From: Elusimicrobiota bacterium
GTDB taxonomy: Bacteria > Elusimicrobiota > Elusimicrobia > UBA1565 > UBA9628
NCBI GenBank assembly: GCA_026388095.1
Contig: JAPLKL010000044.1
Span: 3,993-67,992, forward strand
Direction of reading: 5' to 3'
Length of the DNA stretch: 64,000 nucleotides
Position 1 is the stretch's first letter. Each line of letters starts with the position of its first letter. The position numbers and the translations under genes were made by a program. Below, piece by piece: positions 5,452-59,841 of this stretch. The notes below the pieces were generated by a model. The model did not search any database. It was not told where the DNA came from and saw only the letters and a list, made by a program, of their open reading frames with translations.

Positions 5452-5482
5452 GGTCCGTCAGAGTATCTCGGCGAGGAAGGCC

Positions 5483-6023: not shown

Positions 6024-6138
6024 TGAAATTATTCGCGGGTCAAGAGGTCGTCAAGGTGGGCGTTTTTGGACTACGAGAATGACGTGATGCCACCATGTTA
6101 TTTTCTTGATTGCGCCGGCTGTTGTGGCGCTTCTTAAA

Positions 6139-7435: not shown

Positions 7436-7455
7436 CGATCAAGGAGCAAAATAAA

Positions 7456-7803: not shown

Positions 7804-7952
7804 ACCTCACCATTTCGGGCAAAGCACAGCTCAGAGACCTGTCCGAGTAATATGGTTCCCATCCCCGTTTTGCAACTTTGGAAGGGGGGGGTGGCGAGGC
7901 GACTTGGCCAAAATGGGGCTGTTTAGCCTACAACCACGAGGAGGGAAAAACA

Positions 7953-43190: not shown

Positions 43191-44492
43191 ATGAAGGCCC
43201 TGGCACTCGCCTTGCTCGCGCTGGCCGCCGCGCCGGTCCACGGCGTGGAGGTGGCGCGCGTGCAGGTGGCCGCGCCGGTCAACTCCTTCATCACGGGCGC
43301 CTCGGCCGTGGGCGCGCGCTCCCAGATCGGCCCGCTGGCCAACCCGTCCCTGTCGGGCGCGGGCGCGCTGTCTTTGACCTCGAAGCTGGCCGTCCCGACC
43401 TTGGTCCCGACGGTGATCCCCGTGGCGCCGGGAGTCCAGTCCTACTCCGCTCCCAGCGCGGCCCCCCAGACGGTCTCCGCAATCCCGCTCTCCGCTCCCG
43501 CGGCGCTGGCTCCGACGGGCGGCGCCTCGCTGCTGCAGCAGTCCGCGGAGCAGAAGAGCGCGCCGGCGGCCGCGGTGAACACTTTGCACGGCTTCGTGGC
43601 GCAGATGGAGTCCAGCCGGGTCTCGGGCCGGAACATCTCCAACGAGCTCTCCAACCGTTTCTTCGACCAGTCCGGCACGCGGGGCCCGCCGCTCGCGGTT
43701 CCGGCCGAGGCCTCGGTCTCCGACGTCGCGGCGCCCAAGCTGCCTCAGGGCGTAACCAAGGTGGCGGTGGACACGGTGCGCAGCGCCGCGGACGTGCAGC
43801 GCCTCATCCCGGACAGCGGGAACTCAAAGAGCCTCAAGGCCAAGCTCAAGCGCATGGTCTCGCAGATGGCGCCTTACCAGATCTATACCTATTACGACCG
43901 GAAGGGCGGGCGCTTCGCGGGCATCGATCTTTCCGCCAGACCCGGCTTGATCGACCAGATCCCGGAGCTGCAGCAGCACGAGGTGAAGCTCATCAAGAAG
44001 CTGATGCTGGTCAACAGCGACATCCGGGTCCTGGTGCGCGAGGACGGAAAGACCCCGGACCTGGTGATAGGCGACAAGCTGGTGGAGATCAAGAGTTCCC
44101 TCGGGGAGGCTATGGCTTTGGAGTCGCTCATCGCGAAGGCCAACATGCAGATCTTGGAGCACGGCCAGCGCCACGGCTTGGGGCGCGGCGCTATGGCTTT
44201 GGATTTGACGCGCCAGTCGCGGGTCCCGGTGGCCGAGGTCCAGGGCATCCTGGACTCCTGGCAGGCGGGGTCTAAGGACCAGATTGTTTTGGAGCAGGTG
44301 ATCGTGTTCGGCCAGACGGACATGCAGGTCTTCATGCGCCAGGCGGACGGAACCTACCGGATCCAGGCGCCGGCCGCCGCGGTCCGGCACATCGTCAACG
44401 AGCGGCCGCTGGCCCCGTCCGAAAGGGGCCGGGCTCAGGCGCTGCTGCGCAACGGCATCGAGAAGTCGCCGGTGCTGGCCCTGAGCCTGTAG
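43191..44492 (+). CDS. Secreted hypothetical protein with Ala/Pro-rich linker and C-terminal domain carrying a PD-(D/E)xK-like motif.
   Basis: Signal peptide MKALALALLALAAAPVHG. TATAAT at 43173-43178. Motif TPDLVIGDKLVEIKS. Immediately upstream of tRNA-Gln. Confidence 0.6.
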   Translation: MKALALALLALAAAPVHGVEVARVQVAAPVNSFITGASAVGARSQIGPLANPSLSGAGALSLTSKLAVPTLVPTVIPVAPGVQSYSAPSAAPQTVSAIPLSAPAALAPTGGASLLQQSAEQKSAPAAAVNTLHGFVAQMESSRVSGRNISNELSNRFFDQSGTRGPPLAVPAEASVSDVAAPKLPQGVTKVAVDTVRSAADVQRLIPDSGNSKSLKAKLKRMVSQMAPYQIYTYYDRKGGRFAGIDLSARPGLIDQIPELQQHEVKLIKKLMLVNSDIRVLVREDGKTPDLVIGDKLVEIKSSLGEAMALESLIAKANMQILEHGQRHGLGRGAMALDLTRQSRVPVAEVQGILDSWQAGSKDQIVLEQVIVFGQTDMQVFMRQADGTYRIQAPAAAVRHIVNERPLAPSERGRAQALLRNGIEKSPVLALSL

Positions 44493-44546
44493 GCTGCCAC
44501 CCCGGCCCGGCAAATTTTGGTAGAATATGTCCGTTCACCGATTTAT

Positions 44547-44617
44547 TGCCGGATGGTGAAATGGTATCACGGGTGGCTCTGAACCACTTATTCTAGGTTC
44601 GAATCCTAGTCCGGCAG
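44547..44617 (+). tRNA. tRNA-Gln (anticodon CUG).
   Basis: Cloverleaf by hand. Acceptor TGCCGGA/TCCGGCA with U1-A72; D-stem GTGA/TCAC; anticodon stem GGTGG/CCACT with loop CTCTGAA (CUG); variable TATT; T-arm CTAGG-TTCGAAT-CCTAG; discriminator G. No encoded CCA. Confidence 0.8.
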
Positions 44618-44637
44618 AACTTTAGCGGCAAAAAAAA

Positions 44638-44662
44638 TGAAGCCCTCCGAAAAGGAGGGCTT
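44638..44662. terminator. Intrinsic-terminator-like hairpin GAAGCCCTCC-GAAAA-GGAGGGCTTC (member of repeated hairpin family).
   Basis: 10-bp perfect stem downstream of the tRNA and convergent with the CDF gene stop at 44676. Confidence 0.55.
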
Positions 44663-44675
44663 CCGTGTTTCTGGC

Positions 44676-45335
44676 TTACTCGCAGTGGGAGCAGCCGCAC
44701 CCGCCGCTGAAATTCTCGTGGCGGGATGCCTGGACCGCTTCGACGCCCTCCTTGCCGATCAGGATGGCTAGGACGAGTCCCGCAACAGAGTCAGCCCACC
44801 AAAGAGACGGCAGCAGGAAGAATACCAGGCTTCCTCCCAGGAGCACGGTCGAGAGCTTGATGCAGACCAGCGAGCAGTCGGCGTCCTTCATCATGGTCGC
44901 GCTGTCGAGACCTGCGGCGACGTTCTTCTTGGAACGCCAAAGATAGAACATAAAAGTCAGACTGATGACCGATACCAGGATTCCGGGTATAACCGTCTCC
45001 GGCTGCGCTCGCTGGGCGAGCTTGACCAAACACCCAGCCGTCGTCAGGATGCCCAAGGCGACAAAGAGGAGTCCTATCACGAACACGGCGCGTCGCTCGG
45101 CGTCGAGGGAGATTGCCTCCCGCTTGCCCATCTCGCTTTGGAATCGCCAAAGCACTACTACGGCGGACGCCACTTCGATGAAGCTGTCTAATCCAAAGCC
45201 AGCCAACGCGAGCGATTCCTTCTCCAGGCCGAAGTAGACCGAGACCAAGCCCTCCAGAACGTTGTATCCAATCGTGAACCAGGAAAGCTGGATGGCTCGC
45301 TTTAGGTAGACGGTTTTAGCCGCGTCCATATTCAC
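44676..45335 (-). CDS. Cation-diffusion-facilitator (CDF)-like transmembrane protein with Cys-rich C-terminus; lacks the cytoplasmic C-terminal domain.
   Basis: 219 aa, ~6 TM. FGLDSFIEVASAVVVLWRF is CDF TM2-like with Asp; ends GGCGCSHCE. Lower-GC gene. Confidence 0.55.
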   Translation of the reverse strand: MNMDAAKTVYLKRAIQLSWFTIGYNVLEGLVSVYFGLEKESLALAGFGLDSFIEVASAVVVLWRFQSEMGKREAISLDAERRAVFVIGLLFVALGILTTAGCLVKLAQRAQPETVIPGILVSVISLTFMFYLWRSKKNVAAGLDSATMMKDADCSLVCIKLSTVLLGGSLVFFLLPSLWWADSVAGLVLAILIGKEGVEAVQASRHENFSGGCGCSHCE

Positions 45336-45408
45336 AGTATATCAGTTGACTGTCGATGCATGGTGCAGATGACGTTCCCCCCGAAAACCAGGCCAAGTGG
45401 ATCAATAA

Positions 45409-45520
45409 GCGCAATTAAACGCGCCTTCGGCCAAGAAAGTTCTAAACTCGTCCAAGTAGGGCAGAACTTTCTCGACGACCGACGACCCGTAGGGCAACCT
45501 GCGGGTCGCTTCATTTTGAG
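45409..45520 (+). ncRNA. Copy 1 of a conserved ~75-nt structured element followed by a terminator hairpin (candidate sRNA or shared cis-regulatory element).
   Basis: GCAATTAAACGCGCCTTCGGCCAAGAAAGTTCTAAACTCGTCCAAGTAGGGCAGAACTTTCTCGACGACCGACG, then GACCCG-loop-CGGGTC and CATTTTG. Aligns with the copies at 47829 and 49293. Confidence 0.45.
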
Positions 45521-45648
45521 CCTTGCGAGGCGGGCGGACACCGCTGCGGGCACCGGTTACTGCGGGATGAAGAGATGGAACTCGTCATCCGGGCGGCGGC
45601 GGGGTTCGGGAAGTCGCGCCGGCGGTGTCTGTTTGACTAAGCGAAGGC

Positions 45649-47052
45649 TTAGTAGAACTTGAGCGCCGGGTCAGCGGCGCTCAGCCGGGGCGTTTGTTCT
45701 CGGTTCTGACGGCGCGCGGCGCGCGGCACCTCGCGCGCGAGATAATCGCCGAGTTCCGCCATGGTCACGTGCCCGTCCTTGTTAGCGTCCGCCGCTCCCT
45801 GGAGTCCCTTGAGCAGGAAATACGTGAACACCCCGTGCCCCTCATCCTGCAGGCCGCCGGCAATCTGGTCGCCGGCCGACGCTGTCAGGATGGAGAAGCG
45901 CGGGTCGCTCGGCGCGTCGGTTTGCCGGACCGTGACGAGGGGGCGGGCGCCTTTGGCCAGGACGGAGCGGCCGCCCGCGCCCGAAAAGCAGGCGTCAATG
46001 ATGACGACGATTTGGCGGGCTTTGAGTGCCGCCAAGCGCTCGTAGAGGCGGGACAACGGGTACGCGCTCGATTCCAGGAAGGCCGGGTCGCCGTCCCAGG
46101 GCACCAGATAGGCGCTGCCTTTGACCGGGTCCGGGGCGCCATGTCCGGAGTAATAGACCCACAGGCGCGATTTCTCGGTGACATTCTTCGGCAGCCACTC
46201 CTCGATGTAGCGGGCGAGGCCGGCGCGCGTGGCCCGCGAGCCCAAGAGCGCAATCGCATTCTCCTTTGGAACGCCCAGGCGCTCCACCGCGTAGCGCCCG
46301 AACGCTGCGGCGTCGCGCTCGCCGAATTCGGCTTCGGGGATGGACTGGTAGCGCTCTACGCCCATGATGAGGGCGTAATCGTCCGGCTGGGGAACGGTCT
46401 GGGCGCCAGGCTCCTCCACGTCGGACCGGCGCGCCTGCGCGACAGGGGAAGGCGCTGCGGGCGCGGCGGGAGGCTGGCCGCCAGCCTGCAGGAACGCCTC
46501 GCTCAGGTTGAGCATCGACTCGTCCGACTCCAGCGTCGCGAAGGCTTCTCCGAAGGCCATGGTCAGGGCGGTCTGCGGGTCGTTGGCCCGGCCGCTACCG
46601 GCGTAGCCGCGGGCCCAGAGTCGGGCGCGCCGGCGGCTATCGACGATGGTCAGTTCGAAGGCGGCGTCGGCCCGGTAGTCCTTGGTGAACTGCAGGGCGC
46701 CCACCTCCGCGCGCTGGATGGTCCCGCGCAGGGCCAAGGGTGAGGGGCCGCCCAGGACGCCCTTGCGCTCCAGGGCTGCGGCGACATTGCGCTCCACGCT
46801 GGCGCCCAGGTCTCCTCCGGCGGAGATGGCCGTTTGCCCCGCCACGCTGAATCCGCCGTAGCCGAAGAGCGAGGGGTCGCGCCTTTCGTCGTGGAAGCGT
46901 TCGACGACGACGGCGAAAAGGGGCTCGCGCGCCTGCGCGGGGCGCGGCTGCGGCATGAGGGCGTCCACGGGCAGTACGCGGGGCGTAGCCACCGTCATGC
47001 AGCCGGACAGGCCGGCCATGCCGATGACGGCAAGGAGGGCCAGCCGCCTCAT
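45649..47052 (-). CDS. Caspase-like (peptidase C14) lipoprotein.
   Basis: Starts MRRLALLAVIGMAGLSGC (lipobox). C-terminal caspase domain YYSGHGAPD...IVVIIDACFSG (His-Gly / Cys dyad). The upstream 250 codons of annotated ORF 45649-47814 are R/P/G-rich read-through and are rejected. Confidence 0.7.
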   Translation of the reverse strand: MRRLALLAVIGMAGLSGCMTVATPRVLPVDALMPQPRPAQAREPLFAVVVERFHDERRDPSLFGYGGFSVAGQTAISAGGDLGASVERNVAAALERKGVLGGPSPLALRGTIQRAEVGALQFTKDYRADAAFELTIVDSRRRARLWARGYAGSGRANDPQTALTMAFGEAFATLESDESMLNLSEAFLQAGGQPPAAPAAPSPVAQARRSDVEEPGAQTVPQPDDYALIMGVERYQSIPEAEFGERDAAAFGRYAVERLGVPKENAIALLGSRATRAGLARYIEEWLPKNVTEKSRLWVYYSGHGAPDPVKGSAYLVPWDGDPAFLESSAYPLSRLYERLAALKARQIVVIIDACFSGAGGRSVLAKGARPLVTVRQTDAPSDPRFSILTASAGDQIAGGLQDEGHGVFTYFLLKGLQGAADANKDGHVTMAELGDYLAREVPRAARRQNREQTPRLSAADPALKFY

Positions 47053-47720
47053 CGCGCCACCTTGACGAGCATGTCGCGCGACATGCGGACCGCTCGGCGC
47101 GTGATCGACGACAGGAGGAGTCCGCCCTCCCGGCCCACGTCCGCGGCCATGACCTCGTCGGTGAAGGTGTGGCTCGTGGTGTGGAACCGCCGGGTGCCCG
47201 TGCTGTCCTCTATGGACAGGAGCTCGACATTGCCCTTGCCCAGCACCGAGAGCTTCCAGTCCAGGGAGAGTTCGACGAAGGTGCCGCCGCCGCCGAACAG
47301 GGGGTCGCCCCATTGGAAATTCTCTTCGATGGCGGCCACGGCCAGCACCACGACGGCGTCGTATTCGCCGGGGGGCGGTAGTTGGCGCAGGACCGAGACG
47401 CTCTGGAACGCGCCGGGGAAGGCCTCGGCCGCCTGGCGCGCCAGCTCCTCGGGGATGGGCAGGTACTTCTCCCCGCCGAAGTGCTCGGTCTGGTCCTGCC
47501 GCACGCTGTGGCCGCGGCCTCCCTGCAAGGAGAGATAATACCGGAAGCCCATGGGGTCTGGGATGACCACGGCCAGGTGCAAGGGAAGCTTCTGCTCCGG
47601 AGTCAGTCCGAGGTCGGGTGTGGGTCCGCGGAAAGGGATGGGCCGGACCTGGATGGTGAAGCAGGCGGCCAAGGACAGACAGAGTGCGGCGCCTGCCGTC
47701 GTCAGGATGAGATTCTTCAT
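47049..47720 (-). CDS. Lipoprotein of unknown function, translationally coupled to the caspase-like gene.
   Basis: MKNLILTTAGAALCLSLAAC lipobox with a GGAG RBS. ATGA overlap with the downstream gene. Confidence 0.6.
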   Translation of the reverse strand: MKNLILTTAGAALCLSLAACFTIQVRPIPFRGPTPDLGLTPEQKLPLHLAVVIPDPMGFRYYLSLQGGRGHSVRQDQTEHFGGEKYLPIPEELARQAAEAFPGAFQSVSVLRQLPPPGEYDAVVVLAVAAIEENFQWGDPLFGGGGTFVELSLDWKLSVLGKGNVELLSIEDSTGTRRFHTTSHTFTDEVMAADVGREGGLLLSSITRRAVRMSRDMLVKVAR

Positions 47721-47828
47721 GGGGACATCTCCGGAGCCCACTGATCAGAGAGATGCACCGGCATCCGTGATGATTGTAGAAAAAAGCGCTGGCGTTGTGG
47801 GACAAACAAGTCAAGCCCGGAGCATTAG

Positions 47829-47927
47829 ATGCAATTGAATGCGTTTTCGGTGAGAAAAGTTCGAAAGTCGTCTAAGCAGGGCAGAACTCTCCGACGAACG
47901 AGGCCCTTGGCGTGAAGCTGAGGGCCT
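47829..47927 (+). ncRNA. Copy 2 of the conserved structured element with strong intrinsic terminator.
   Basis: GCAATTGAATGCGTTTTCGGTGAGAAAAGTTCGAAAGTCGTCTAAGCAGGGCAGAACTCTCCGACGAACG, then CGAGGCCCT-loop-AGGGCCTCG and TTTTTTT. Confidence 0.45.
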
Positions 47928-48023
47928 CGTTTTTTTCGGCTTACAACTACGGGGTGTCTGGTATGGCGAGGTCCGTGATGCGCTCGCAGTCTAAGCGCAC
48001 CTGGGCTCGCGCCGCGTCATTGA

Positions 48024-49076
48024 TCAGTGGCGCGGCCCTTCAGCGCGGTCCGCAAGCAACTGTGCCTCCAATCTCCGGACCTTGGCGATCAAGTCGGGGA
48101 GCCTCCTCAAGGCGGCGTGCATCTTGTGAGCCTCCCGGGCAGGCAGGGCCGGAGTCCCGAAATAGGCTTGTCCGGGCTCCGTATCCTGTGCCAACCCGGA
48201 CATGCCCATGACGCCCGACCCCTTGGCGACCCGCACATGGTCCTTGACGATGACCATCCCGGATATCATCGCCCCGTCCTCGATGACCACGGAGCCGCCG
48301 ATAGCCGTGTTCCCTATGATGTAGATGAATCGGCCGATCCGGCAGTTGTGCCCGATGTGGACCTGGTCGTCGATCTTCGTGTATGTCCCTATCGTGGTGC
48401 TCTCGATGGTCGCCCGGTCGATGGTGCATCCGGCGCCGATTTCGACGTGATCGCTGATGACGACGTTGCCGATCTGGGGGATCTTGTGCCTTTGGCCAGG
48501 CCGGTCATAGTATCCGAACCCGTCCGCTCCGATCACGGCGCCTCCGTAGATGATGCAGCGCTTGCCCACGACGCAGTGATGGCCGACGACGGCGCGGGGA
48601 TAGAGGACGGTGCCTTCCCCGACCTCGGCATACGGCTCGACGACCGAGCCCGGATAGAGGACGCACCCGGGTTCGATGACGGCGTTCGCCATCACGACGG
48701 CGCCCGGAAGGATGGCGGAGCTCTCCGCGATACGGGCCGATGAATCCACTTTGGCCGCACTCGAAATCCCCGGCTCGAATGCTGGTGCCTTATCGAAGAT
48801 TTTCAGAACCTTAATGAAGACCAGACGGACATCCTCTGCGGAGATGAGAGCCCGACGGAATTGACCGGACAACTGCTTGGTCGTCAACACCGCGCCGTGC
48901 TCCGCCATGAGGGGATGGCGCTTCAATACCGCCTTGGACTCAACGAAGTAGAGGCGGTTTTCTTCGGGGAGTTGATCGGAAGATAGGCACTCGACATCCC
49001 GAATCCCGAGGATTGCATAATCCGCTTCCCCCTTGACCTCGACACCCAGCATCCGGCCTAGTTCTTGCAGCGTCAT
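48024..49076 (-). CDS. lpxD: UDP-3-O-acylglucosamine N-acyltransferase LpxD.
   Basis: Starts MTLQELGRMLG with a GGAGGAG RBS. Hexapeptide repeats; GADGFGY...KIPQIGNVVISDHVEIGAGCTIDR. Lower-GC gene. Confidence 0.8.
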   Translation of the reverse strand: MTLQELGRMLGVEVKGEADYAILGIRDVECLSSDQLPEENRLYFVESKAVLKRHPLMAEHGAVLTTKQLSGQFRRALISAEDVRLVFIKVLKIFDKAPAFEPGISSAAKVDSSARIAESSAILPGAVVMANAVIEPGCVLYPGSVVEPYAEVGEGTVLYPRAVVGHHCVVGKRCIIYGGAVIGADGFGYYDRPGQRHKIPQIGNVVISDHVEIGAGCTIDRATIESTTIGTYTKIDDQVHIGHNCRIGRFIYIIGNTAIGGSVVIEDGAMISGMVIVKDHVRVAKGSGVMGMSGLAQDTEPGQAYFGTPALPAREAHKMHAALRRLPDLIAKVRRLEAQLLADRAEGPRH

Positions 49077-49292
49077 CAACTCTCCTCCAGCGCCAAGGGG
49101 CACCGAAAGTCTGCCTCAAGCCCGAGGACGGGAAGCAGCTTCGGTAACCCCTCCGGCGACGCGGGTCTGCCTGTCCTCAGTTATACCGCTTGCGCCGGGG
49201 GAGCGTCAACCATCCGCAGGGAGTATGTCCACTTGGGCCGTTGCTGTGTCGACCCGACCTTTCCCCCGAAGACTGGGCCAATCTCATTGATA

Positions 49293-49384
49293 GCCGCAGT
49301 TAAGCGGTTTCCGCCAAGAAAGTCCTAAAGTCGTCTAAGTAGGACAGCCATTCTCTGAAGCCCTCCGAAAGGAGGGCTTTTTCT
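49293..49384 (+). ncRNA. Copy 3 of the conserved structured element, terminating in the GCCCTCCGAAAGGAGGGC hairpin plus T-run.
   Basis: GCAGTTAAGCGGTTTCCGCCAAGAAAGTCCTAAAGTCGTCTAAGTAGGACAGCCATTCTCTGAAGCCCTCCGAAAGGAGGGCTTTTTC. Compensatory GTCCT/AGGAC here versus GTTCT/AGAAC in copy 1. Confidence 0.45.
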
Positions 49385-49493
49385 TGATATACTGCGGTTG
49401 AATTCATGCGCGGCGGATGGGATGCGCCTCTAGGCAGCGGCCGGTCGGGCGCGCCTGTCCAGCAGCCGGAAACATGATGGAAGGAGAACGAAC

Positions 49494-50282
49494 ATGAGAG
49501 TCCCGCGCCCGACCCGCACCGCCGCCCTCGCCCTGTCCCTGCTCGGAGCCGCCTCCTGGGCCCTGGCCTCGACCATGACCGTCCGCCTCAAGGACGGCAC
49601 CTCGACGAGCTACGACACGGCCCGCATTGAATCGGTGACCTTCTCCGAATCCTCCGCGCGGCGGGCGGCGGCCGGTAAGACCCTCTTTGAGGAGTCCTTC
49701 CGCTCTGGGCTCGGTGACGCCTGGGAGCCAGTCGCCGTGGTGGGCGGGGACTTCGACCGGTTCGCCAAGCTGATCCCCGGCCGCCTGGAGGTCGCCGTGC
49801 CGGAGGGCAACCACTGGACCAAGACCGGGATCATGTCCAAGGCGCCCTTCTTCACCGTGGCCCCCTACATGGCGTTGTCCCCCCTCAAGATCGACCTGGG
49901 CTTCGACCCGGCCAAGACCACGGGCTACGTCATCGGCATCTCCGAGGTCAAGGACGCGGACATGTGGCGCCAGCAGAACGCGTGGTTCCACTTCATCACG
50001 GTCTCGCCGACCGAGACTTCCGCGTACCTCGTCAACACCCAGAACGGGGGGGAGAACTACGGCTCGGTCAAAGGCCCGGCCGCCGCGCCCGTGACTGTCA
50101 CTTTGAGCGTCTCTCCCGGCATGCTGCGCGTGGAAACCTCGGCGGGCATGAAGCTGGAGGGCAGGTTCTCCTGGCTGAAACCCGGGGTCCCGGTCTATCT
50201 CTATGTCTTCAGCCATCCCAAGGACGACCAGGGGCCCGCGGCCTTCGCGCTGGAGAGCATCCGCAAGTACACGAACCTCTGA
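49494..50282 (+). CDS. Secreted hypothetical protein.
   Basis: GGAAGGAG RBS. Signal peptide MRVPRPTRTAALALSLLGAASWALA. Confidence 0.55.
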   Translation: MRVPRPTRTAALALSLLGAASWALASTMTVRLKDGTSTSYDTARIESVTFSESSARRAAAGKTLFEESFRSGLGDAWEPVAVVGGDFDRFAKLIPGRLEVAVPEGNHWTKTGIMSKAPFFTVAPYMALSPLKIDLGFDPAKTTGYVIGISEVKDADMWRQQNAWFHFITVSPTETSAYLVNTQNGGENYGSVKGPAAAPVTVTLSVSPGMLRVETSAGMKLEGRFSWLKPGVPVYLYVFSHPKDDQGPAAFALESIRKYTNL

Positions 50283-50399
50283 GGTCGTAGGAGATATCGC
50301 CCCGCTGCGATCCAGCCAGCCGCGGCTCGCGGGCGGAAAAGCGAAGGACCCCCGAGCCGACGCAGGCCGAGGGTCCCTCGTCCAACGGACGCCGAAACG

Positions 50400-51515
50400 T
50401 TATTTGCCGCTCGCCTTCTGCGTCAAGCGAAGGTCGGCGACCATCTTCCCGACCAGCATGTCTACCGCTTGGTCGTAATCCGCCAGCATCGGGGCGAACA
50501 GGTCCCGCTCCGCCTCCGTTCCCATGCCGTTGCGGCAGCATTTCATGTAATCATGCTGCGCGGCCACGTCGTAGGGGACGCCGACCTTGTCCTCGAACTC
50601 CATCTTATACATCCGGTATATCGGGCTCACCTTGGGGCCGATGCGCCTCTTGTTCGCGGCCTTGACGATCTCCTCCCACCGCGGGAACGGCACGTTCACG
50701 CTTGCCGAGATCGTCATCTTCGCCGTCCCCTTCAAGTTTTCGCTGATGGCCTGCTTGCGGTCGGTCTCCCAGTGGAACGTCGAATGGGTGATGATGCCCG
50801 CATCAAGCCCGGCCTCGGGGCCGATCTTGTCGAGGGGCCCGCCCCAGTTCTGCTGGGCGACCCCGCCCGGGGCGCCGAAGGTCCCGAAGTCCCGCAGGCC
50901 TCTCGGGATCGCGTAAACGGTGTCGCGGGGCTTGCTGCCTCCGGGCGCCGCGATGAAGGCGGCCTTGACCCCCTCGAAGCCCAGGATCTTGTCCATCTTC
51001 TGGAAGATGGAGGTCTCCGTGTTGTTCGGCCAGTCTTTCACCGCCTTGCCTTCCTTCTGATAGGCGGCGGACTGGGTTATCTTCTCGATAGGGACCAGGG
51101 TGACGTCCGACGTCGCATATTTCTCGAGCGCCTTGTTCCATGACGCGAGCATCCGCTCCGAGATCGTCTGCTGTACGGCCTCCATCGGGAACAGATTGGC
51201 GCAGCACCCCGGCGTCTTCGCCCCGCCGGACCGCATGATGTTCGTGTCGAAGATGACCAGGCCGATATTCTTGAGCGCGCCGCCCGGAGCGACGAGCATG
51301 TCGTCGGTGGGCGGGTAGTACCCTTTCGACATGTTCGTGACCTCGATGATCTGCTCCGCGGCCTTGGCCCGCTCCTCCCCCTGGAGCTTGGAGTGGACCG
51401 CGGGGTCGTACTTGAGAGTCCCACCCGTGGTCTTGCCTGGCCCGGCGAACCCCGGCTGGACGAGAACAGCCGCGCAGAATACGGCTCCGACGATGCCTCT
51501 GATGACCTTGCTCAT
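50400..51515 (-). CDS. Secreted hypothetical protein.
   Basis: Starts MSKVIRGIVGAVFCAAVLVQPGFAG with a GGAGGAG RBS. No recognisable domain. Confidence 0.55.
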   Translation of the reverse strand: MSKVIRGIVGAVFCAAVLVQPGFAGPGKTTGGTLKYDPAVHSKLQGEERAKAAEQIIEVTNMSKGYYPPTDDMLVAPGGALKNIGLVIFDTNIMRSGGAKTPGCCANLFPMEAVQQTISERMLASWNKALEKYATSDVTLVPIEKITQSAAYQKEGKAVKDWPNNTETSIFQKMDKILGFEGVKAAFIAAPGGSKPRDTVYAIPRGLRDFGTFGAPGGVAQQNWGGPLDKIGPEAGLDAGIITHSTFHWETDRKQAISENLKGTAKMTISASVNVPFPRWEEIVKAANKRRIGPKVSPIYRMYKMEFEDKVGVPYDVAAQHDYMKCCRNGMGTEAERDLFAPMLADYDQAVDMLVGKMVADLRLTQKASGK

Positions 51516-51626
51516 GTCCACTCCTCCCCGCGAGAATAACGAGGAGGCACTGTACGACATAGTCGCTGCGCGGCACCATGACGAGCGTCAGCTATCTCAG
51601 GAAGAGGAGCCGCGCTTATGAGCGGC

Positions 51627-52061
51627 CTACTTTTTTGGAGGGGCGTCGATCTGGCCGACAATGCGCCACGGGCGCCCGTCGTCTTTCCCTTTATCTTCCG
51701 GGACGACTTTCACACAGCGTTCCACCTTCTCCTTGAGATTGGCCAAGACGAACGGTTTCGTGATGTATTCCACCGCGCCCAACTCCAAGGCCCGCTTCGC
51801 CAACTCGATATCGTTCTGGCTGGTCAGCACGATGATGGTCATCGTCACGGCGGAGGCTTGACAGGCTTGGAGCACCTCAAGACCGCTCATCCCGGGCATG
51901 ACCATATCCAGCATCATGAGCCGAGGCCGCTCCGCTTCGATGATCCGCAGCGCCTCCTCGCCCGTGGAGGCCTCGATGACCTCGCCGGTCGTCTCGAATA
52001 GACAGGCCAGGATCTTCCGGTCGGCTGGGTCGTCATCAACCACCAATATCCTATTGTTCAT
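51627..52061 (-). CDS. Single-domain response regulator (CheY-like).
   Basis: ILVVDDDPADRKIL...LMMLDMVMPGMSG...YITKP. Confidence 0.8.
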   Translation of the reverse strand: MNNRILVVDDDPADRKILACLFETTGEVIEASTGEEALRIIEAERPRLMMLDMVMPGMSGLEVLQACQASAVTMTIIVLTSQNDIELAKRALELGAVEYITKPFVLANLKEKVERCVKVVPEDKGKDDGRPWRIVGQIDAPPKK

Positions 52062-52137
52062 GGAAGCTCACCTTACGATACCACCTCTGACGGGCTGTGT
52101 CTATGCGGACTTATACGTGGAATGCGGGATCCGCGGC

Positions 52138-52161
52138 AAAGCCCTCCGAGAGGAGGGCTTC
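52138..52161. repeat. Hairpin AAAGCCCTCCGAGAGGAGGGCTTC (member of repeated hairpin family).
   Basis: Same GCCCTCC...GGAGGGC stem as at 44638, 49358 and 59819. Confidence 0.5.
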
Positions 52162-52220
52162 TTGTCGTCTCGACGCGGCTGAGCCGGCTGAGGCCGGTCC
52201 GCTGAACGGCCGGCGCCGTC

Positions 52221-54779
52221 TCAGCGCACGTCGAGCTGGAGCTGGCAGGGGGCGTCGGCAGCCTCCGGCGTGACCGCCGGCTCCAGGCTGAAGAACCGCG
52301 CCGCCGAAATGCCGCGCGCGCGCAGAGCCTCCGTGATGACCCCGGCGCGGGCCAGGGCCACGGTCCGCAGTTCGGCGTCCGTCGCCAGCCACTTCTCGGC
52401 GAGCCCGTCGCGGGCCGCGGCCGCCGAAGCGGCCGGAGCGCCGAAGGCCTCCTGGTAGAGCGACAGGGCCTGGGCCTCCTCCTTGGGCGTCAAAGGCTCG
52501 TCTCCGCCCTTGGCCCCGCGCAAGCGGGTCAGGAGGGCGCGCGCGCCGGCGGCCAGGGCGTCGGCGCGGCCGGCCGCGCCGCGCACGCCCACGAGCATCT
52601 GCGGCCGGTCTGCCAGGGCCTGCGCCACCTTCTCCAGGTCCGCGGCGCGCTCCGCCGGCAGGGCCGACTCCCCGGGCGCGAAGGCCACCTTGCCGAGGTC
52701 ATCCTTGGAGCCCAGCATCTGGCCCAGCGCGGCGAAAGGCGACACCGCGGCCTTGACGATCAGGTTGACGACGGTCTTGATGACCGCGCCCATGATGTGG
52801 AAGTCCGGGTCGTCGAGGCTGCCGTCGATGGGGATGTCCAGGTCGATGACGCCGCGCCGGTCCTTCAGGATGGCCAGCCCCAGCCTGACCGGCGCCTTGA
52901 TCGCGTCCGGGCTCTCCACCTTCTCGCCCAAAGTCATCTGGTCGATGAGCGCGTGGTTCTTGGTCGCGATGGTCCGCCCCGCGAGCTTGTGGTCCAGGTC
53001 GAAGCTCAGCGCCCCCTGGTCGATCTTATAGCCCACCAGCCGGCCGGAATAGGGGCTGAACACCGGGAGCTGGATGCCGTCGCCTTTGAGCCGGACCGCC
53101 GCCCAGGCGGCCGCCGTCGAGAGGCGCACCGTGCCCTCGGCCGAGACCGGGGCGTCCTCGACCCGGGCCCCGCCGGAGAAGACCGCGGTCGAGCGGGCGT
53201 CGGTCGCCAGGCCCGTCAGGTCCAAGCGGGCCTCGGACACGGCCAAAGAGAACGCCGGGGCCACGGCGTCGTCCTGGGCCACGATGCGCCCGCCGGAGAC
53301 CGAGAGGCGCTTGAGCCGCACCCCCCAGGGCTCCCCGCCGGGCGCGGCCGGGCGGGGAGGTGCCGCGGGCGCTGGAGACTTCGCGGGCGCGCTCGAAAAC
53401 GACACTCCCAAGGCCGATTCGATGTTGGTCTTGCCGTCGCGCCGGCGCGCGGCGAGCAGGTAGGGCTTATCCACCCGGATGGCCGCGATGTCGAGGCGGC
53501 GGGCCTTGGTCGATAGGCGAGCGGACTCCACGGCCAGCCGCCCCAGGCGGACGAAGACGCGGCGGCTCTGCCGGTCCGAGACCGAGAGGCCGGACAGGGA
53601 GAAGGAGACCGCGGCCTCGACCTCTCCGTCGGCGAGGCTGGCCTTGCCGTCGGCGCTGAAGGTCCCGCTGTCGAGCGAGACCTGCGTGGGCGGCGGTCCC
53701 AGCGGCGAGAAGGGCGCCAGAGGCAGAGCCGCGACCTCGAACTCCGCGCCCGCGGCCAGGGGCTTGGGCTTGAGGTAGGATCTCAGGCGCACGAGGCCGG
53801 TCCTGGACACCGGGACCTCGGCCGACAGGGTCAGGCCTCCGCGGGGGAGGTCCGCGGCCACCGCGTCGACCTTGGCCGGCCCGATCTCCAGCGCGAAGGG
53901 CCCCCGCGGCTTCTCCTTGACCGACTTGAGCCTCCACATGAGGCCGGCGATGGAGGTCCGGGCGTCCTTGAGCGAGAGGGTGAGGGTGCCGCTGTCGAGC
54001 GCGACGTCGTAATCCGTGGAGGCGTCCAGTTTGCCCGCCGAGATCTCCACGGGCAGGGCCGGAGCCCCGGTGGCGAGGCGCGAGAGGTCCGCGTCAGCGA
54101 GCGCGACGCGGCCCCAGAGGTGGGGCGGCCGCACGGTCAGGCGCCCTTCCCAGCTCAGGACCTCGCCCTTGCTGGTCCGGGCCTGCAGGCGGTGCATCCC
54201 GTCGTCGCCGACGATGGTGCTGAGGTTTTGGAGGCGGAATTCGATGGGCCGGGCCGAGAGGCGCTGGGGGGCGCTGCGCAGGCGGCTCTCGAAGTTGAGC
54301 TCCCCGTCCACGATATCAAGGGCGCCGATCACCAGGCGCGGGATGAACATCGGCTGGGCCGGGGCCGCGGGTTCCGCCGGAGCCTTCTTGGGCAAAGCGT
54401 CGAGGACGCTGCTGCCGTCCGGTCCGATGCCCAAGGTCAGCTTCGGTCCCTCGAGTTTGATCTCGCGCAGGCCGATCGCCAGGCGCAGCAGAGCGGCCGG
54501 GCCCAGCGCCACGCTGGCCGAGCGGCAGGAGGCTAGCTCCCCGAAGCGCTCCTGGGTCAAGGCGAGGCCCTCCACGGTCAGGCGCAAGGTCAGGGGGTTG
54601 AAGGCCGCGCGGTCCAGGCGCGCCGCGAAGGTGGGCAGGTATTCCGGGACCAGGCTCAGGGCGCGGCGGACCGCCCAGGGCACGGCGGCCCAGGAAACGG
54701 CGGCCAGGACGACGTAAGCGCCCGCGGCATAGGCCAGGCGCCGGAGCCACTTGCGCGAAGCGGGGACGAGGGTTTTCAT
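52221..54779 (-). CDS. DUF748/AsmA-like large envelope protein.
   Basis: 852 aa with N-terminal TM anchor and a long beta-rich periplasmic region typical of the AsmA/DUF748 family. Confidence 0.6.
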   Translation of the reverse strand: MKTLVPASRKWLRRLAYAAGAYVVLAAVSWAAVPWAVRRALSLVPEYLPTFAARLDRAAFNPLTLRLTVEGLALTQERFGELASCRSASVALGPAALLRLAIGLREIKLEGPKLTLGIGPDGSSVLDALPKKAPAEPAAPAQPMFIPRLVIGALDIVDGELNFESRLRSAPQRLSARPIEFRLQNLSTIVGDDGMHRLQARTSKGEVLSWEGRLTVRPPHLWGRVALADADLSRLATGAPALPVEISAGKLDASTDYDVALDSGTLTLSLKDARTSIAGLMWRLKSVKEKPRGPFALEIGPAKVDAVAADLPRGGLTLSAEVPVSRTGLVRLRSYLKPKPLAAGAEFEVAALPLAPFSPLGPPPTQVSLDSGTFSADGKASLADGEVEAAVSFSLSGLSVSDRQSRRVFVRLGRLAVESARLSTKARRLDIAAIRVDKPYLLAARRRDGKTNIESALGVSFSSAPAKSPAPAAPPRPAAPGGEPWGVRLKRLSVSGGRIVAQDDAVAPAFSLAVSEARLDLTGLATDARSTAVFSGGARVEDAPVSAEGTVRLSTAAAWAAVRLKGDGIQLPVFSPYSGRLVGYKIDQGALSFDLDHKLAGRTIATKNHALIDQMTLGEKVESPDAIKAPVRLGLAILKDRRGVIDLDIPIDGSLDDPDFHIMGAVIKTVVNLIVKAAVSPFAALGQMLGSKDDLGKVAFAPGESALPAERAADLEKVAQALADRPQMLVGVRGAAGRADALAAGARALLTRLRGAKGGDEPLTPKEEAQALSLYQEAFGAPAASAAAARDGLAEKWLATDAELRTVALARAGVITEALRARGISAARFFSLEPAVTPEAADAPCQLQLDVR

Positions 54780-55462: not shown

Positions 55463-55603
55463 ACTCGGGCCCTCCTTTCCCAGGAGGGTTCCTTGTTTCC
55501 CTACACCCAAACTGCTTGAATAGGGCCAGGCGATGGAGTTCGCCTGAACCGCCCCGGCGACGGGGCTGATGACTCCTACCGATCGCGGTAGGAGTCTCTT
55601 TTT
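55463..55603 (+). promoter_or_regulatory. Structured leader with multiple hairpins, ending in a strong intrinsic terminator immediately before the antiporter RBS (candidate attenuator or riboswitch).
   Basis: CCCTCC-TTTCCCA-GGAGGG; CAGGCG-N8-CGCCTG; GCCCCG-GCGA-CGGGGC; GACTCCTACCG-ATCG-CGGTAGGAGTC plus TTTTTTT; then GAGGGGAG RBS and ATG at 55616. Confidence 0.4.
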
Positions 55604-55615
55604 TTGAGGGGAGAC

Positions 55616-56764
55616 ATGGACACGATCTACGCCGCGACCTGCATCACCCTTCTGGTCTTCATCGCCAGCGTCTTCTCCGTCGAGCTGGCGCTCTCGGCGG
55701 CCATCATCGAGATCGCGGTCGGCGTCATCGCCGGCAACTTCCTCGGCCTGCAGTCCGCGCCCTGGATGGACTTCCTCGCGGGCTTCGGCGGCATCCTGCT
55801 CACCTTCCTGGCCGGGGCCGAGGTGGACCCCAAGATCATGCGGGAGAAGTTCAAGGAGAGCGTTCTCATCGGAGGGATCTCATTTTTGGTCCCCTATCTG
55901 GCCGCCATCGCCTACTGCCGCTGGGCCGCCGGCTGGACCTGGGACGCCTCGCTCATCGCGGGCTGCGCGCTCTCGACGACGTCCTTGGCCGTGGTCTACG
56001 CGGTCCTGGTCGAGACCGGACTGACCAGGACCGAGATCGGCAAGGTCATCATGGCCGCCACCTTCGTCACGGACTTCGGCGTGGCCATGGCCCTGTCCTT
56101 GACCTTCGCCCGATACGACCGCTACACCCTGTGCTTCATCCTGGGCTCGGCCCTGCTCATCACGGCCGCGGCCCGCTGGCTGCCCGGCGTGTTCCTGCGC
56201 TACGGCAAGCGGGTCATAGAGCCGGAGATCAAGCTCCTTTTCTTCCTGCTCTTCTGCTTCATGTCCTTGGCCAAGCTGGGCCAAGGGCACGCGGTCCTGC
56301 CGGTCTTCATCCTGGGCCTGTGCCTGGCCGCGCTCTTCCGCGAGCATCAGGAGCTCCAGAAGAAGCTCCGCGTCGTGGCCTTCGCCATGATCACGCCCTT
56401 CTTCTTCATCAAGGGCGGCATGAACGTGTCGCTGGGCTCCGTCCTGGCCCAATGGCCGCTCTTCCTGATCCTGTTCGGGGTCAAGCTCGCGGCCAAGTTC
56501 GTCGGGGTCTGGCCCCTGGCCAGGCTCTACGCGCGCGGCCACGCCGAGTACACGACCTTGCTCATGAGCACCGGCTTGACCTTCGGGACCATCTCGTCGC
56601 TCTACGGGCTCCAGGCCGGCTACATCGACAAGGGTCAGTTCTCGGTCCTGGTGGCCGTGGTCATCGGGACGGCCATCATCCCGACCTTCATCGCCCAGCG
56701 CTGGTTCTCCCCGGCGCTGCCGGAGGCCGAGGAACTGCTGGCTCGGGAGGAAGAGAGCTCCTGA
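55616..56764 (+). CDS. Cation:proton antiporter (CPA/Na+-H+ exchanger family).
   Basis: ~11 TM; typical Na_H_Exchanger segments. The annotated TTG start at 55604 is rejected in favour of the ATG after the RBS. Confidence 0.75.
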   Translation: MDTIYAATCITLLVFIASVFSVELALSAAIIEIAVGVIAGNFLGLQSAPWMDFLAGFGGILLTFLAGAEVDPKIMREKFKESVLIGGISFLVPYLAAIAYCRWAAGWTWDASLIAGCALSTTSLAVVYAVLVETGLTRTEIGKVIMAATFVTDFGVAMALSLTFARYDRYTLCFILGSALLITAAARWLPGVFLRYGKRVIEPEIKLLFFLLFCFMSLAKLGQGHAVLPVFILGLCLAALFREHQELQKKLRVVAFAMITPFFFIKGGMNVSLGSVLAQWPLFLILFGVKLAAKFVGVWPLARLYARGHAEYTTLLMSTGLTFGTISSLYGLQAGYIDKGQFSVLVAVVIGTAIIPTFIAQRWFSPALPEAEELLAREEESS

Positions 56765-59765: not shown

Positions 59766-59818
59766 ACCGGGAAGGTCGGCAGCTCAAGCCAGACCGACTT
59801 CGACGCTCAATGGACACT

Positions 59819-59841
59819 GGCCCTCCGAAAGGAGGGCTTTT
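59819..59841. terminator. Bidirectional intrinsic terminator GGCCCTCC-GAAA-GGAGGGC plus TTTT (repeated hairpin family).
   Basis: Sits between the convergent stop codons at 59765 and 59847. Confidence 0.6.

Follow-up and report, generated by a model that had tools for sequence, protein, structure and literature searches.

A probable patchwork of variable gene blocks beside tRNA-Gln in an Elusimicrobia bacterium, with a repeated element made of a conserved core and a terminator

We analyzed a 64,000-nt stretch of DNA from an uncultured Elusimicrobia bacterium (the window) and found that positions 44547-52220, beside a tRNA-Gln gene, form a patchwork of self-contained gene blocks. The region as a whole is probably best explained as a flexible (accessory) stretch of chromosome whose blocks vary between relatives, rather than as a classical integrase-borne tRNA island, with a repeated element (E) as a likely RNA module. 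The blocks would be a CDF-type metal transporter gene with the membrane domain only; an operon in which a lipoprotein with an LptE/PqiC-type fold is coupled to a C14 caspase-like lipoprotein; a stand-alone lipid A gene, lpxD; and two secreted unknowns with a CheY-like regulator. Sequence reading and consensus scans predicted promoter-like sites for the lpxD and response-regulator blocks and terminator hairpins after several blocks. The new item is E itself, which consists of a near-invariant 30-nt core and an intrinsic terminator and falls outside the Rfam families (no family at E <= 1).

The E element

E is a conserved module of 130-150 nt. Three co-oriented copies part the first three blocks (0.02 copies were expected in the window by chance), which bears out an earlier report of repeated elements at the block junctions. 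Copy 1 (45367..45518, + strand) has a 5' arm, a core (45436-45464) and an intrinsic terminator (45483-45508 plus a T-run). The same parts make up copy 2 (47803..47938, +; core 47856-47884, terminator 47903-47931 plus T7) and copy 3 (49255..49385, +; core 49319-49347, terminator hairpin 49357-49380 plus a T-run). Copy 3 begins precisely at the end of the lpxD block common with a relative (L013), in which the orthologous copy has lost its core through an internal deletion. The minimal unit is the core with the + strand terminator 10-45 nt behind it; a hairpin with a T-rich tail was located 3-45 nt (mostly 10-35) past the core in 15 of the 17 high-GC copies. These hairpins comprise at least five sequences unrelated to one another, and the core is kept near-invariant over its 30 nt across genomes of 50-69% GC.

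The core was detected in three contigs from Elusimicrobia MAGs and in 11 from metagenomes; of the latter, L007 appears to match by chance. All named matches were Elusimicrobia MAGs, and searches of viral, plasmid and phage collections did not detect E. Copies were co-oriented within every cluster (3/3, 3/3, 6/6 and 3/3), and the clusters coincided with lower-GC3 DNA. In L012, L013 and L029, copies with only the core and terminator immediately followed co-directional genes; single genes directly followed by E encoded a YkgJ-like protein, ClC, a 129-aa membrane protein and RIC, and in L001 an E copy and a tRNA-Gln(CUG) were 0.8 kb apart. Neither strand of E showed a conserved sigma70-type promoter, and RNAalifold gave little structure beyond the terminator. 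On the opposite strand, substitutions resemble those of a short reading frame (…LPYLDDFRTFL…) lacking a consistent start codon. Its pN/pS was 0.37 in the high-GC copies, compared to 0.5-2.0 in other frames; no other frame was free of stops in both lineages, and within this one the Leu codons TTG/CTG/CTC and the Arg codons CGA/AGA/AGG alternate. On this strand copy 1 reads ...VLPYLDEFRTFLAEGAFNCAY (stop) and copy 2 reads ...VLPCLDDFRTFLTENAFNCI (stop), the latter without a canonical start codon. No larger parent protein was found for the frame.

Possible roles of E

To judge from its sequence, E is most likely a multi-copy small RNA or a 3'-UTR/3'-end RNA module. The RNA would be transcribed left to right, ending at its terminator, and would arise either from the element's own 5' arm or as the 3' end of the preceding gene. 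A pure small RNA model does not explain the coding-like opposite strand. It is possible, though unlikely, that E is instead a small-ORF/antisense-RNA locus of the type I toxin-antitoxin kind (Ibs/Sib), with a 20-35-aa minus-strand peptide (...LP[YF]LD[DE]FRTFL...) whose ORF would be overlapped and controlled by the terminated + strand RNA; loci of this kind could have a stabilising effect on the blocks beside them. The stop-free frame showed coding-like substitution in both lineages (pN/pS was 0.54 in the L014 copies), but 7 of the 22 copies had no ATG, GTG or TTG ahead of the conserved residues and no Shine-Dalgarno sequence was conserved. Two inter-lineage indels were, on inspection, multiples of three that leave 'AE' and 'FN' in frame, and gene callers had called five such ORFs of 36-86 aa; yet the N-terminal parts were unrelated, and the core-only copies retain just ~10 codons. 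The multi-copy, intergenic character of E, the conserved terminator of the opposite-strand RNA and a HigBA-like pair between E copies in L014 would suit such a locus, whereas inspection showed that both lineages conserve an ATCAAT motif, but in different frames, which suggests that the nucleotides themselves are constrained.

As repeated copies, RNA modules of this kind may also supply homology for block shuffling. Their presence at synteny junctions does not imply that E takes part in rearrangement, because blocks end in intergenic DNA anyway; L026 and L019 hold the lpxD and caspase blocks, respectively, without any E copy. A cassette system with E as its recombination site is, in our view, quite improbable. 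Like integron attC arrays or serial site-specific insertion, it would consist of units of one or more genes plus one E, and the array would grow by insertion at an existing E through a recombinase encoded elsewhere. No recombinase was found near any cluster, in sequence covering the 64-kb window, 21 kb of L029 and 8 kb of L003. In favour of such a system, the copies in each cluster are strictly co-oriented while the intervening genes face either way, and single genes directly precede E. The constancy of the core across genomes of differing GC and the lower GC3 around the clusters would fit cassettes, but the absence of E from viral, plasmid and phage collections does not, and the conserved terminators suggest a role at the RNA level. 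The sister species has, relative to the window, an extra unit (full E plus YkgJ) before the E facing lpxD; a vertically inherited E-lpxD-E arrangement nevertheless accounts for the same data.

The gene blocks and their composition

GC content was 0.556-0.560 at 44.5-45.5 kb, 0.68-0.72 at 45.5-47.5 kb and 0.586-0.632 at 47.5-49.5 kb, relative to a window mean of 0.663. The dips in GC noted in the initial annotation are therefore present, but the alternation it described is modest in contrast. Each dip is due in part to the AT-richer intergenic regions of 300-420 nt in which the repeats lie (GC 0.55-0.60). Compared to the 41 other genes of the window, GC3 was clearly atypical in only three of the seven region genes, namely those for CDF (0.757, z = -3.2), LpxD (0.783, z = -2.6) and the response regulator (0.793, z = -2.4). 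Codon composition was ordinary in the other four (z-scores of -1.0 for the caspase, -0.5 for the lipoprotein, and +0.4 and -0.4 for the two secreted unknowns). The window has a far stronger compositional outlier outside this region, at 5.46-8.25 kb (GC3 0.54-0.61).

The CDF-type cation transporter gene (44676..45329, - strand; 'heavy metal transporter' at NCBI, MCX5795932.1) encodes 217 aa with a Cys/His-rich tail, GGCGCSHCE. The protein matched Pfam Cation_efflux at 27.6 bits (cut-off 26.6) and TIGR01297 at just 25 bits (cut-off 82). Six hydrophobic segments were counted by reading the sequence rather than with a predictor, and the cytoplasmic C-terminal domain is missing. We found no sign of the truncation that had been proposed; the ORF is intact, is annotated at the same length and covers Pfam profile positions 8-190 of 198. 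The gene ends 13 nt before a bidirectional terminator hairpin, GAAGCCCTCCGAAAAGGAGGGCTTC (44639..44663, between tRNA-Gln and the CDF 3' end), with a T-run on the minus strand (ATTTTTTTT) and a weaker plus-strand tail. Instead of the four identical terminator hairpins previously counted, the AAGCCCTCC...GGAGGGCTT hairpin has three copies in the region (at 44640, 49358 and 52139) and a fourth, with two mismatches, outside it at 59818; the hairpins after E copies 1 and 2 differ in sequence. The third copy (52138..52161, - strand) lies 60 nt downstream of a minus-strand DUF748 gene.

In the second block, the gene for a 223-aa lipoprotein (47049..47720, - strand) overlaps by ATGA the gene for a 467-aa lipoprotein (45649..47052, - strand; 'caspase family protein' at NCBI, MCX5795933.1). 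In the latter, a Pro/Ala linker joins an N-terminal domain to a C-terminal C14 caspase-like domain (Pfam PF00656, E = 5e-10), and an LSGC lipobox was read from its sequence. His304 (YYSGHGAP) and Cys355 (DACFSGAGG) were invariant in five orthologues of 39-90% identity, so that the initial description of an ATGA-coupled pair with an intact His/Cys dyad was confirmed. The fold of the partner, of LptE/PqiC/DUF330 type, matched XCC0632/DUF330, PqiC and LptE. The partner has just eight homologues, and wherever a contig extends downstream, a C14 gene or cut-off ORF abuts or overlaps it; the two genes form a rare module, seen in Elusimicrobia-type contigs. Promoter region and both genes are conserved as one unit (45648..47826, - strand), with 87.7% nucleotide identity to another species (L019) over exactly 45648-47826; in L019 and L018 the block has other neighbours and no E copies, in agreement with the proposal of a mobile or accessory module. 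Nothing supported the suggested cell-death role; both proteins are lipoproteins, the partner with a fold of the outer-membrane LptE/PqiC type. The pair most likely acts as an envelope protease at the outer membrane, its dyad intact by sequence, with a scaffold or partner lipoprotein.

LpxD (UDP-3-O-acylglucosamine N-acyltransferase; 48024..49076, - strand) was indeed full length, with a true start at 49076 giving 350 aa and a TIGR01853 equivalog match of 272 bits (cut-off 242.5). A putative sigma70-like promoter of its own, TTGACG-N18-TATAAC, was read at ~49185-49215 on the minus strand. The block (48049-49254) was 93.9% identical to L013/L029 and 88.6% to L026. The protein had 6940 homologues, among which is an unbroken series from Elusimicrobia at 60-70% identity, and in two more distant Elusimicrobia genomes (L023-L025) lpxD is likewise a lone gene away from lpxA/fabZ. 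Since it is a typical Elusimicrobia orthologue and stands alone in those genomes too, lpxD is probably the organism's housekeeping copy; its linkage to the tRNA in L026 also speaks against the extra accessory paralogue first proposed. It may still be xenologous or a second copy, because its GC3 is lowered here and host-typical in two other Elusimicrobia genomes.

The fourth block encodes a secreted protein of 262 aa (49494..50282, + strand; GC3 0.92, genome-typical), a second secreted protein (50400..51560, - strand; ORF of 386 aa, annotated as 371 aa; GC3 0.884) and a stand-alone CheY-like response-regulator receiver of 144 aa (51627..52061, - strand; Pfam Response_reg, 94 bits). Neither secreted protein gave a family match, the first having been searched in Pfam, NCBIfam and PADLOC. 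A promoter scan placed a promoter-like site for the response regulator at 52103-52075.

Relatives, tRNA-Gln and known systems

Block order and content differed between relatives, as expected of the segment mosaic inferred earlier, although the 'variable' locus rests on four or five genomes in contig-sized pieces. L026 has the same tRNA-Gln (94.7% identical) ~4 kb from lpxD, but the intervening genes are those of a hybrid histidine kinase and an aldo-keto reductase, not the CDF gene and the caspase pair. Because the tRNA linkage recurs there, lpxD resembles resident flanking sequence more than cargo. The sister species has its lpxD in a fixed 10-kb stretch (GC3 0.62-0.83) with six E copies, flanked by the housekeeping genes for RecO-GlyQS and NadE (GC3 0.87-0.92); no tRNA was found in the 21 kb of this species. 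Since the blocks recur in relatives in different combinations and positions, or are missing there, the patchwork would have arisen by gain, loss and recombination of whole blocks, with a putative hot spot near tRNA-Gln.

The tRNA-Gln (anticodon CUG) at the region's edge was recovered by ARAGORN at 44546..44618 on the + strand (Rfam tRNA, 63.3 bits). A classical genomic island has little likelihood; it would have been inserted at the tRNA 3' end by a tyrosine integrase and have decayed later, losing the integrase and the far-end repeat. The region directly adjoins the tRNA and its first gene, CDF, has the most atypical composition, but GC3 was normal in four of the seven genes. As noted previously, integrases and recombinases are missing: scans of the proteins encoded in the region, at 29-64 kb and at 5.4-8.3 kb found none, and the last 19-22 nt of the tRNA had no second copy in the 64 kb even with up to three mismatches. 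Contigs of relatives break at tRNA-Gln (L026), and L026 has other content beside this tRNA; in that same genome, however, lpxD, which would lie within the island, stays linked to the tRNA. The tRNA-integrated island of the initial annotation was thus not upheld. It is very unlikely that the region is an ordinary chromosomal neighbourhood of gene-specific codon usage and AT-richer intergenic DNA with repeats as decaying duplicated remnants, since the modest compositional signal, the lack of mobility genes among our findings and the clear decay of some E copies (the L013 deletion, the core-only copies) are outweighed by a core almost unchanged across 50-69% GC genomes and many samples, by terminators kept despite unrelated stems and by the differing block order.

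By inspection, the E core differs from known recombination sites: integron attC sites have inverted core sites (RYYYAAC ... GTTRRRY) and an imperfect palindrome, whereas the E core has neither and is not dif-like, which argues against cassettes. Known type I toxins have a membrane helix; the predicted minus-strand peptide of E is instead acidic and amphipathic, which counts against a toxin-antitoxin-like locus.

Gene content and composition of the region beside tRNA-Gln

We analyzed the gene content and base composition of the region at 44547-52220, whose cargo directly adjoins the 3' end of a tRNA-Gln(CUG) gene (44546-44618, + strand) detected by both ARAGORN and Rfam. The tRNA ends at 44618 and the first cargo gene ends at 44676, with a bidirectional terminator hairpin at 44639-44663. 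The minus strand carries genes for a CDF-type cation transporter (45329..44676, 217 aa), a C14 caspase-like lipoprotein (47052..45649, 467 aa), its partner lipoprotein (47720..47049, 223 aa) and LpxD (49076..48024). These are followed by a plus-strand gene for a 262-aa secreted protein without a known family (49494..50282) and by minus-strand genes for a second such secreted protein (51560..50400) and a CheY-like receiver, a response regulator (52061..51627), after which comes a gene for a DUF748/AsmA-like protein. The proteins of the region are identical to the NCBI Elusimicrobia MAG entries MCX5795932-38. Upstream of the tRNA lie two large plus-strand genes, 40567-43095 (842 aa) and 43191-44492 (433 aa), whose products had no match in Pfam, NCBIfam or PADLOC; the 433-aa protein begins with a hydrophobic, signal-peptide-like stretch.

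The overall GC content of the window is 66.3%, and the GC3 of the 41 window genes used as reference was 0.903 ± 0.046. The alternation of high-GC and AT-richer blocks noted in the initial annotation was real in the GC profile but modest at the level of single genes, with GC3 z-scores of -3.2 for the CDF gene, -2.6 for lpxD, -2.4 for the response regulator, -1.0 for the caspase, -0.5 for the partner lipoprotein, and +0.4 and -0.4 for the two secreted proteins. The dips were partly due to long intergenic DNA (300-420 nt, GC 0.55-0.60). The strongest compositional outlier of the window was the stretch at 5458-8249, in which four ORFs, one of them encoding a DUF6567/TRL-like protein, had a GC3 of 0.54-0.61 (z = -6 to -8); an XRE-type HTH gene in the same stretch (6139-6486) had a GC3 of 0.82 (z = -1.8). 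As a candidate for recently acquired foreign DNA, this stretch outranks the tRNA-Gln region. Elsewhere in the window, a fluoride riboswitch (Rfam RF01734, 61.8 bits) was found at 55520-55585 (+), directly 5' of a gene for a Na_H_Exchanger-family transporter (55604-56764, +).

The region had been proposed to be an island integrated at the tRNA, possibly decayed. As first noted by eye, no integrase or recombinase domain was found among the proteins scanned, namely those of the region, of 29-64 kb and of the low-GC patch at 5.4-8.3 kb. The last 19-22 nt of the tRNA-Gln had no second match in the 64 kb with up to 3 mismatches allowed. Two defining features of an integrase-borne island were thus not found, and we consider that proposal unlikely. 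The mosaic character of the region, on the other hand, was supported by four synteny comparisons with relatives, which showed variability block by block. The caspase block (45648-47826, comprising both genes and the upstream 106 nt) was 87.7% identical to contigs L019/L018 of another species, where it has different neighbours and no copy of the repeated element E described below. The lpxD block (48049-49254, the gene and its promoter region) was 93.9% identical to contigs L013/L029 of a sister species and 88.6% identical to a further relative, L026. In L026 the same tRNA-Gln (94.7% identity) lies ~4 kb from lpxD, and the intervening genes, for a hybrid histidine kinase and an aldo-keto reductase, replace the CDF gene and the caspase pair of the window; none of the relatives examined showed an empty site. 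In the sister species the order RecO-GlyQS-...-methyltransferase-lpxD-YkgJ-like-RIC-ferredoxin-cupin-NrfHA-ClC-OMP-NadE was fixed, as read from the places shown among 11 contigs with the protein. No tRNA was found in the 21 kb around lpxD in that species, and GC3 in the middle 10 kb was 0.62-0.83 versus 0.87-0.92 in the flanks. This block-wise variability indicates that the region is a flexible locus built of self-contained blocks, a chromosomal hot spot of a known general kind. Judged from these alignments, tRNA-Gln and lpxD appear to be its recurrent anchors rather than island border and cargo.

The lpxD, CDF and lipoprotein-caspase genes

LpxD was full length, as first described. It scored 272.3 bits against TIGR01853 (equivalog cut-off 242.5) over residues 15-340, and its start codon is at 49076 rather than at the GTG initially assumed. 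The suggestion that it is an accessory paralogue fared less well. Its GC3 is indeed lowered, lying 0.12 under the local gene average, both here (0.78) and in the sister species (0.76), although not in two other genomes. However, among 6940 homologues the protein belongs, beyond its own species, to a continuous series of Elusimicrobia LpxD orthologues at 60-70% identity, and in two genomes of this series lpxD stands alone, away from lpxA/fabZ. Among the Elusimicrobia genomes examined, an accessory setting of this gene is therefore nothing unusual, and this lpxD is probably the housekeeping copy. It is possible that a copy from a lower-GC relative has replaced the original gene, or that a second copy is present. 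A C14 peptidase gene was also observed ~7 kb from a stand-alone lpxD in another Elusimicrobia genome (L023/L024:1-1273); the two genes may tend to occur in common envelope-related surroundings, unless their proximity is a coincidence. Our literature search on small RNAs or lpxD in Elusimicrobia returned nothing relevant.

The CDF gene had been called truncated, which our analysis did not bear out. Its ORF is intact, with six hydrophobic segments read from the sequence, and a marginal match to Pfam Cation_efflux (27.6, cut-off 26.6) extends over the membrane domain (positions 8-190 of the 198 in the profile). The protein stops after this domain and lacks only the cytoplasmic C-terminal (ZT_dimer) domain; its score against TIGR01297 was 25.3, below the cut-off of 82.35. 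The annotation can thus be corrected on two points, in that lpxD is probably no extra copy and the CDF gene is no wreck.

For the lipoprotein pair, the translational coupling was confirmed, the caspase gene start overlapping the partner's stop in an ATGA at 47052/47049. An HMM search likewise bore out the C14 domain with an intact His/Cys dyad: the caspase scored 39.9 bits against Pfam PF00656 (gathering score 21.4), and His304 and Cys355 were invariant in five orthologues of 39-90% identity. Its score as an EACC1-associated caspase (NF047832) was 80.2 bits, below the cut-off of 140, and phmmer found no PDB relatives at E <= 0.01. A structure of the caspase predicted without an alignment was unusable (pLDDT 40). 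A search of 5.8 billion proteins yielded only eight homologues of the partner lipoprotein. Where a contig extends far enough, a C14 gene lies next to the partner with the 4-nt overlap (in one, L022, it starts ~20 nt later), and two further contigs end in a cut-off ORF overlapping the partner gene. The partner model, built with an alignment of its homologues, had a confident fold (pLDDT 83), and this predicted structure resembled LptE/PqiC/DUF330-type lipoproteins. A paralogous relation between the partner and the N-terminal domain of the caspase was rejected, as BLASTP between the two was not significant.

Lipoprotein and caspase together form a rare module of the envelope that is conserved, with eight homologues in Elusimicrobia-type contigs. 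Of the two proposals, an envelope protease and a cell-death module, we favor the first: the best reading is a protease that would be tethered at the outer membrane together with a scaffold lipoprotein. The pair would put a protease of caspase fold at the envelope, probably at the outer membrane, with an LptE/PqiC-like companion. A death or defence role, in contrast, found no support, a generic 'caspase' being the sole defence-related PADLOC match. The pair offers a testable lead on what bacterial caspase homologues may do other than cell death.

The repeated element E

The repeats between the cargo genes are copies of one element, E, present in the window at 45367-45518 (E1), 47803-47938 (E2) and 49255-49385 (E3), all on the plus strand. 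Each consists of a 70-nt 5' arm, a 30-nt core, AAAGTNCNAAANTCGTCNAAGNAGGNCAG, and an intrinsic terminator 10-45 nt after the core. The initial annotation described four copies of one hairpin; three are in the region, and the fourth is a 2-mismatch copy outside it, at 59818. Nor does the same hairpin stand behind every repeat, since the hairpins after E1 and E2 differ in sequence. Searched against Rfam, the whole window gave no RNA family for E at the gathering scores, and the stretch 44400-52300 gave none at E <= 1.

By exact-pattern scanning, the core was located in 3 contigs from Elusimicrobia MAGs and in 11 metagenome contigs, of which L007 is apparently a chance match; so far, E has been seen in Elusimicrobia-type contigs. 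Copies cluster, with 3 in 4.1 kb in L003, 6 in 8 kb in L029 and 3 in 5.3 kb in the lower-GC lineage L014, and are co-oriented inside every cluster. In the sister species, the cluster (L013, and L029:9268-17185) holds genes for nitrosative stress and nitrite (RIC/ScdA, ferredoxin, cupin, NrfH, NrfA) as well as a ClC channel and a beta-barrel OMP, all lower in GC3 than the flanking RecO, GlyQS and NadE. A YkgJ-like cysteine-cluster gene (CxxCxxCC) adjoins E in four independent loci and three arrangements (L002:6484-7062; L003:4703-5215; L012, about 5790-6400; L013:2665-3309, equal to L029:11130-11654), none of them in the window; in L003 the minus-strand reading frame of E ends 7 nt before the YkgJ start. 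In L001 (CALRXP010000022.1) a tRNA-Gln(CUG) precedes an E copy by 0.8 kb; the label 'Candidatus Endomicrobium trichonymphae' looks doubtful for this GC-rich contig (65% GC). In L005 an E copy (3519-3612) follows an orthologous two-gene block (84% nucleotide identity to the window), and the matching site in the window, 59818-59839, has a plain AAGCCCTCC-type hairpin, a difference of E presence versus absence. In L014, two small ORFs between two E copies (L014:10582-11235) are by inspection presumably a HigB/HigA-type toxin-antitoxin pair, and one E reading frame opens in frame right after the stop of a 561-aa protein (L014:5530-7365), which we take from its sequence to be nitroreductase-like.

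We tentatively favor an RNA element. A hairpin with a T-rich tail follows the core in 15 of the 17 high-GC copies, and its stems belong to at least five unrelated sequences; retention of a terminator with unrelated stems argues for a plus-strand transcript ending there. Where a copy has only core and terminator, it sits 0-35 nt past the stop codon of a gene read in the same direction (YkgJ-like, ClC, RIC or a 129-aa membrane protein), and full copies lie in divergent intergenic DNA. Such placement matches that of sRNAs that are either expressed from a promoter of their own or derived from the 3' end of an mRNA. Against the RNA reading, no conserved sigma70-like promoter was found for E, and RNAalifold returned only the terminator and a 4-bp hairpin. 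A structured 5' arm or core was rejected, since the stems GCGC...GCGC and TCGTC...GACGA occurred in some copies only and compensatory changes were mixed.

The strand opposite the terminator has a coding-like signature, which is puzzling. It reads (W)LP[YF]LD[DE]FRTFLAESAFNCxY*, with changes that are mostly synonymous or conservative: Leu is TTG, CTG or CTC, Arg is CGA, AGA or AGG, and Phe, Ala, Glu and Ser differ at third positions. This is the sole frame without stop codons and has a pN/pS of 0.37, versus 0.5-2.0 in the other frames; in the lower-GC lineage (L014, L009) the same frame reads AFLDD[FL]RTFCLSAE...LID[ML]NQLL...S*. These data would agree with translation of a tiny ORF that an antisense RNA overlaps. 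Against translation, however, 7 of 22 copies have no upstream ATG, GTG or TTG, the reading frame through the upstream hairpin varies among all three possible ones, and 1.84 billion representative proteins included no larger protein with the motif and only five small called ORFs. We regard this alternative as rather unlikely; a nucleotide-level constraint that mimics coding is possible.

That E is an element of some other kind is doubtful, and a recombination site is at least as doubtful. The lpxD block common with the sister species has one edge at the first base of E3 and the other 110 nt after the E2 terminator, and the caspase block common with L019 stops at the 5' edge of E2. This position at block boundaries would fit a role in shuffling, or merely an intergenic location. 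Yet L026 and L019 hold the same blocks without E, which shows that E is not required for them. We also consider it unlikely that E is a new module, whether a recombination site at cassette boundaries or an element of dual use (core RNA on one strand, start-less short peptide ...LPYLDDFRTFL... on the other), that organises co-oriented accessory arrays holding even lpxD.

Several other origins were rejected. For an origin from part of a larger gene (a duplicated 3' end as in e14/icd, or an IS/TnpB end), a word-indexed search of 5.8 billion proteins gave no support, the profile search of the 1.84 billion representatives gave only the five tiny ORFs with unrelated N-termini, and Pfam and PHROGs were empty. 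Carriage on mobile DNA was dismissed, as E was not found in collections of viral contigs, plasmids and phages. An apparent gene insertion inside E in L013 proved to be an internal deletion, the 5'-arm-only copy having its arm fused to the 3' half of the terminator. A tmRNA, tRNA-like or tRNA-Gln-derived att repeat was discarded because ARAGORN and Rfam were negative and the common GGCAGAAC is too short. A role as promoter (sigma54, ECF or sigma70) of the minus-strand genes lying downstream was a misfit in spacing and motifs; the 106 nt upstream of the caspase block are kept in L019 without E, and lpxD has a putative promoter of its own between E3 and the gene.

E is the most useful by-product of this analysis. 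It combines a nearly invariant stretch of 30 nt with a terminator of its own, recurs several times per genome in an uncultured phylum, is absent from Rfam and marks variable DNA of lower GC3. An sRNA family, if real, would be the first regulatory RNA candidate for this phylum; a recombination site, if real, would explain accessory-gene shuffling in these genomes.

Comparison with known systems

Like tRNA-associated islands and regions of genome plasticity, the region adjoins a tRNA, varies in content at this anchor among relatives, has lower GC3 in part of its cargo, and consists of blocks of accessory type (transporter, envelope proteins, regulator). Unlike in them, no integrase, mobility genes or att-type repeat of the tRNA 3' end were found, most of its genes are host-typical in composition, and it includes the essential-pathway gene lpxD, whose linkage to the tRNA is kept in a relative. 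LpxD itself agrees with TIGR01853 members in score, complete length and a detected hexapeptide-repeat domain (Pfam Hexapep), but its gene is not clustered with fabZ/lpxA, which is also the case in two more distant Elusimicrobia genomes. The caspase resembles bacterial C14 peptidases (orthocaspases, metacaspase-like) in its above-threshold Pfam match and in the invariant His of SGHG and Cys of DxCxSG. It differs from them in being a lipoprotein, in carrying an N-terminal domain of ~170 aa plus a Pro/Ala linker, and in its constant pairing with a lipoprotein of LptE/PqiC fold. That partner has only 7-16% identity to LptE, PqiC (YmbA; DUF330, the ABC-transport auxiliary lipoprotein), CsgG and PelC, with no sequence-family match, and is adjacent not to lptD, pqiAB or mce but to its fixed neighbour, the caspase-like lipoprotein.

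E was compared with three kinds of repeated element. As in integron attC arrays and CALINs, its copies are co-oriented and stand between units of one to few genes, often directly after a gene. Unlike in those arrays, no IntI was found nearby, inspection revealed no R''/R' core sites, bulged palindrome or RYYYAAC/GTTRRRY pair, and the units bounded by E have putative promoters of their own and can point in either direction, while a real terminator is part of each repeat. Type I toxin-antitoxin repeat loci include the Ibs/Sib 'QUAD' and Ldr/Rdl 'LDR' repeats. E shares with them a multi-copy intergenic module of ~150 nt or more and, as predicted, a tiny ORF on one strand with a terminator-ended RNA on the other. 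It departs from them in that a third of the copies have no start codon, the peptide is acidic and amphipathic rather than hydrophobic, and the minimal conserved unit is only ~10 codons. Multi-copy and 3'-UTR-derived sRNA genes are exemplified by Qrr, AbcR and CpxQ-type RNAs. Unlike these, E has no recognised promoter, its reverse complement behaves as a reading frame, and its copies are clustered and co-oriented in variable DNA. Like them, E shows a short core that is conserved and apparently unpaired, with a Rho-independent terminator after it, lies free in intergenic DNA or right after a stop codon, and occurs as several paralogues per genome.
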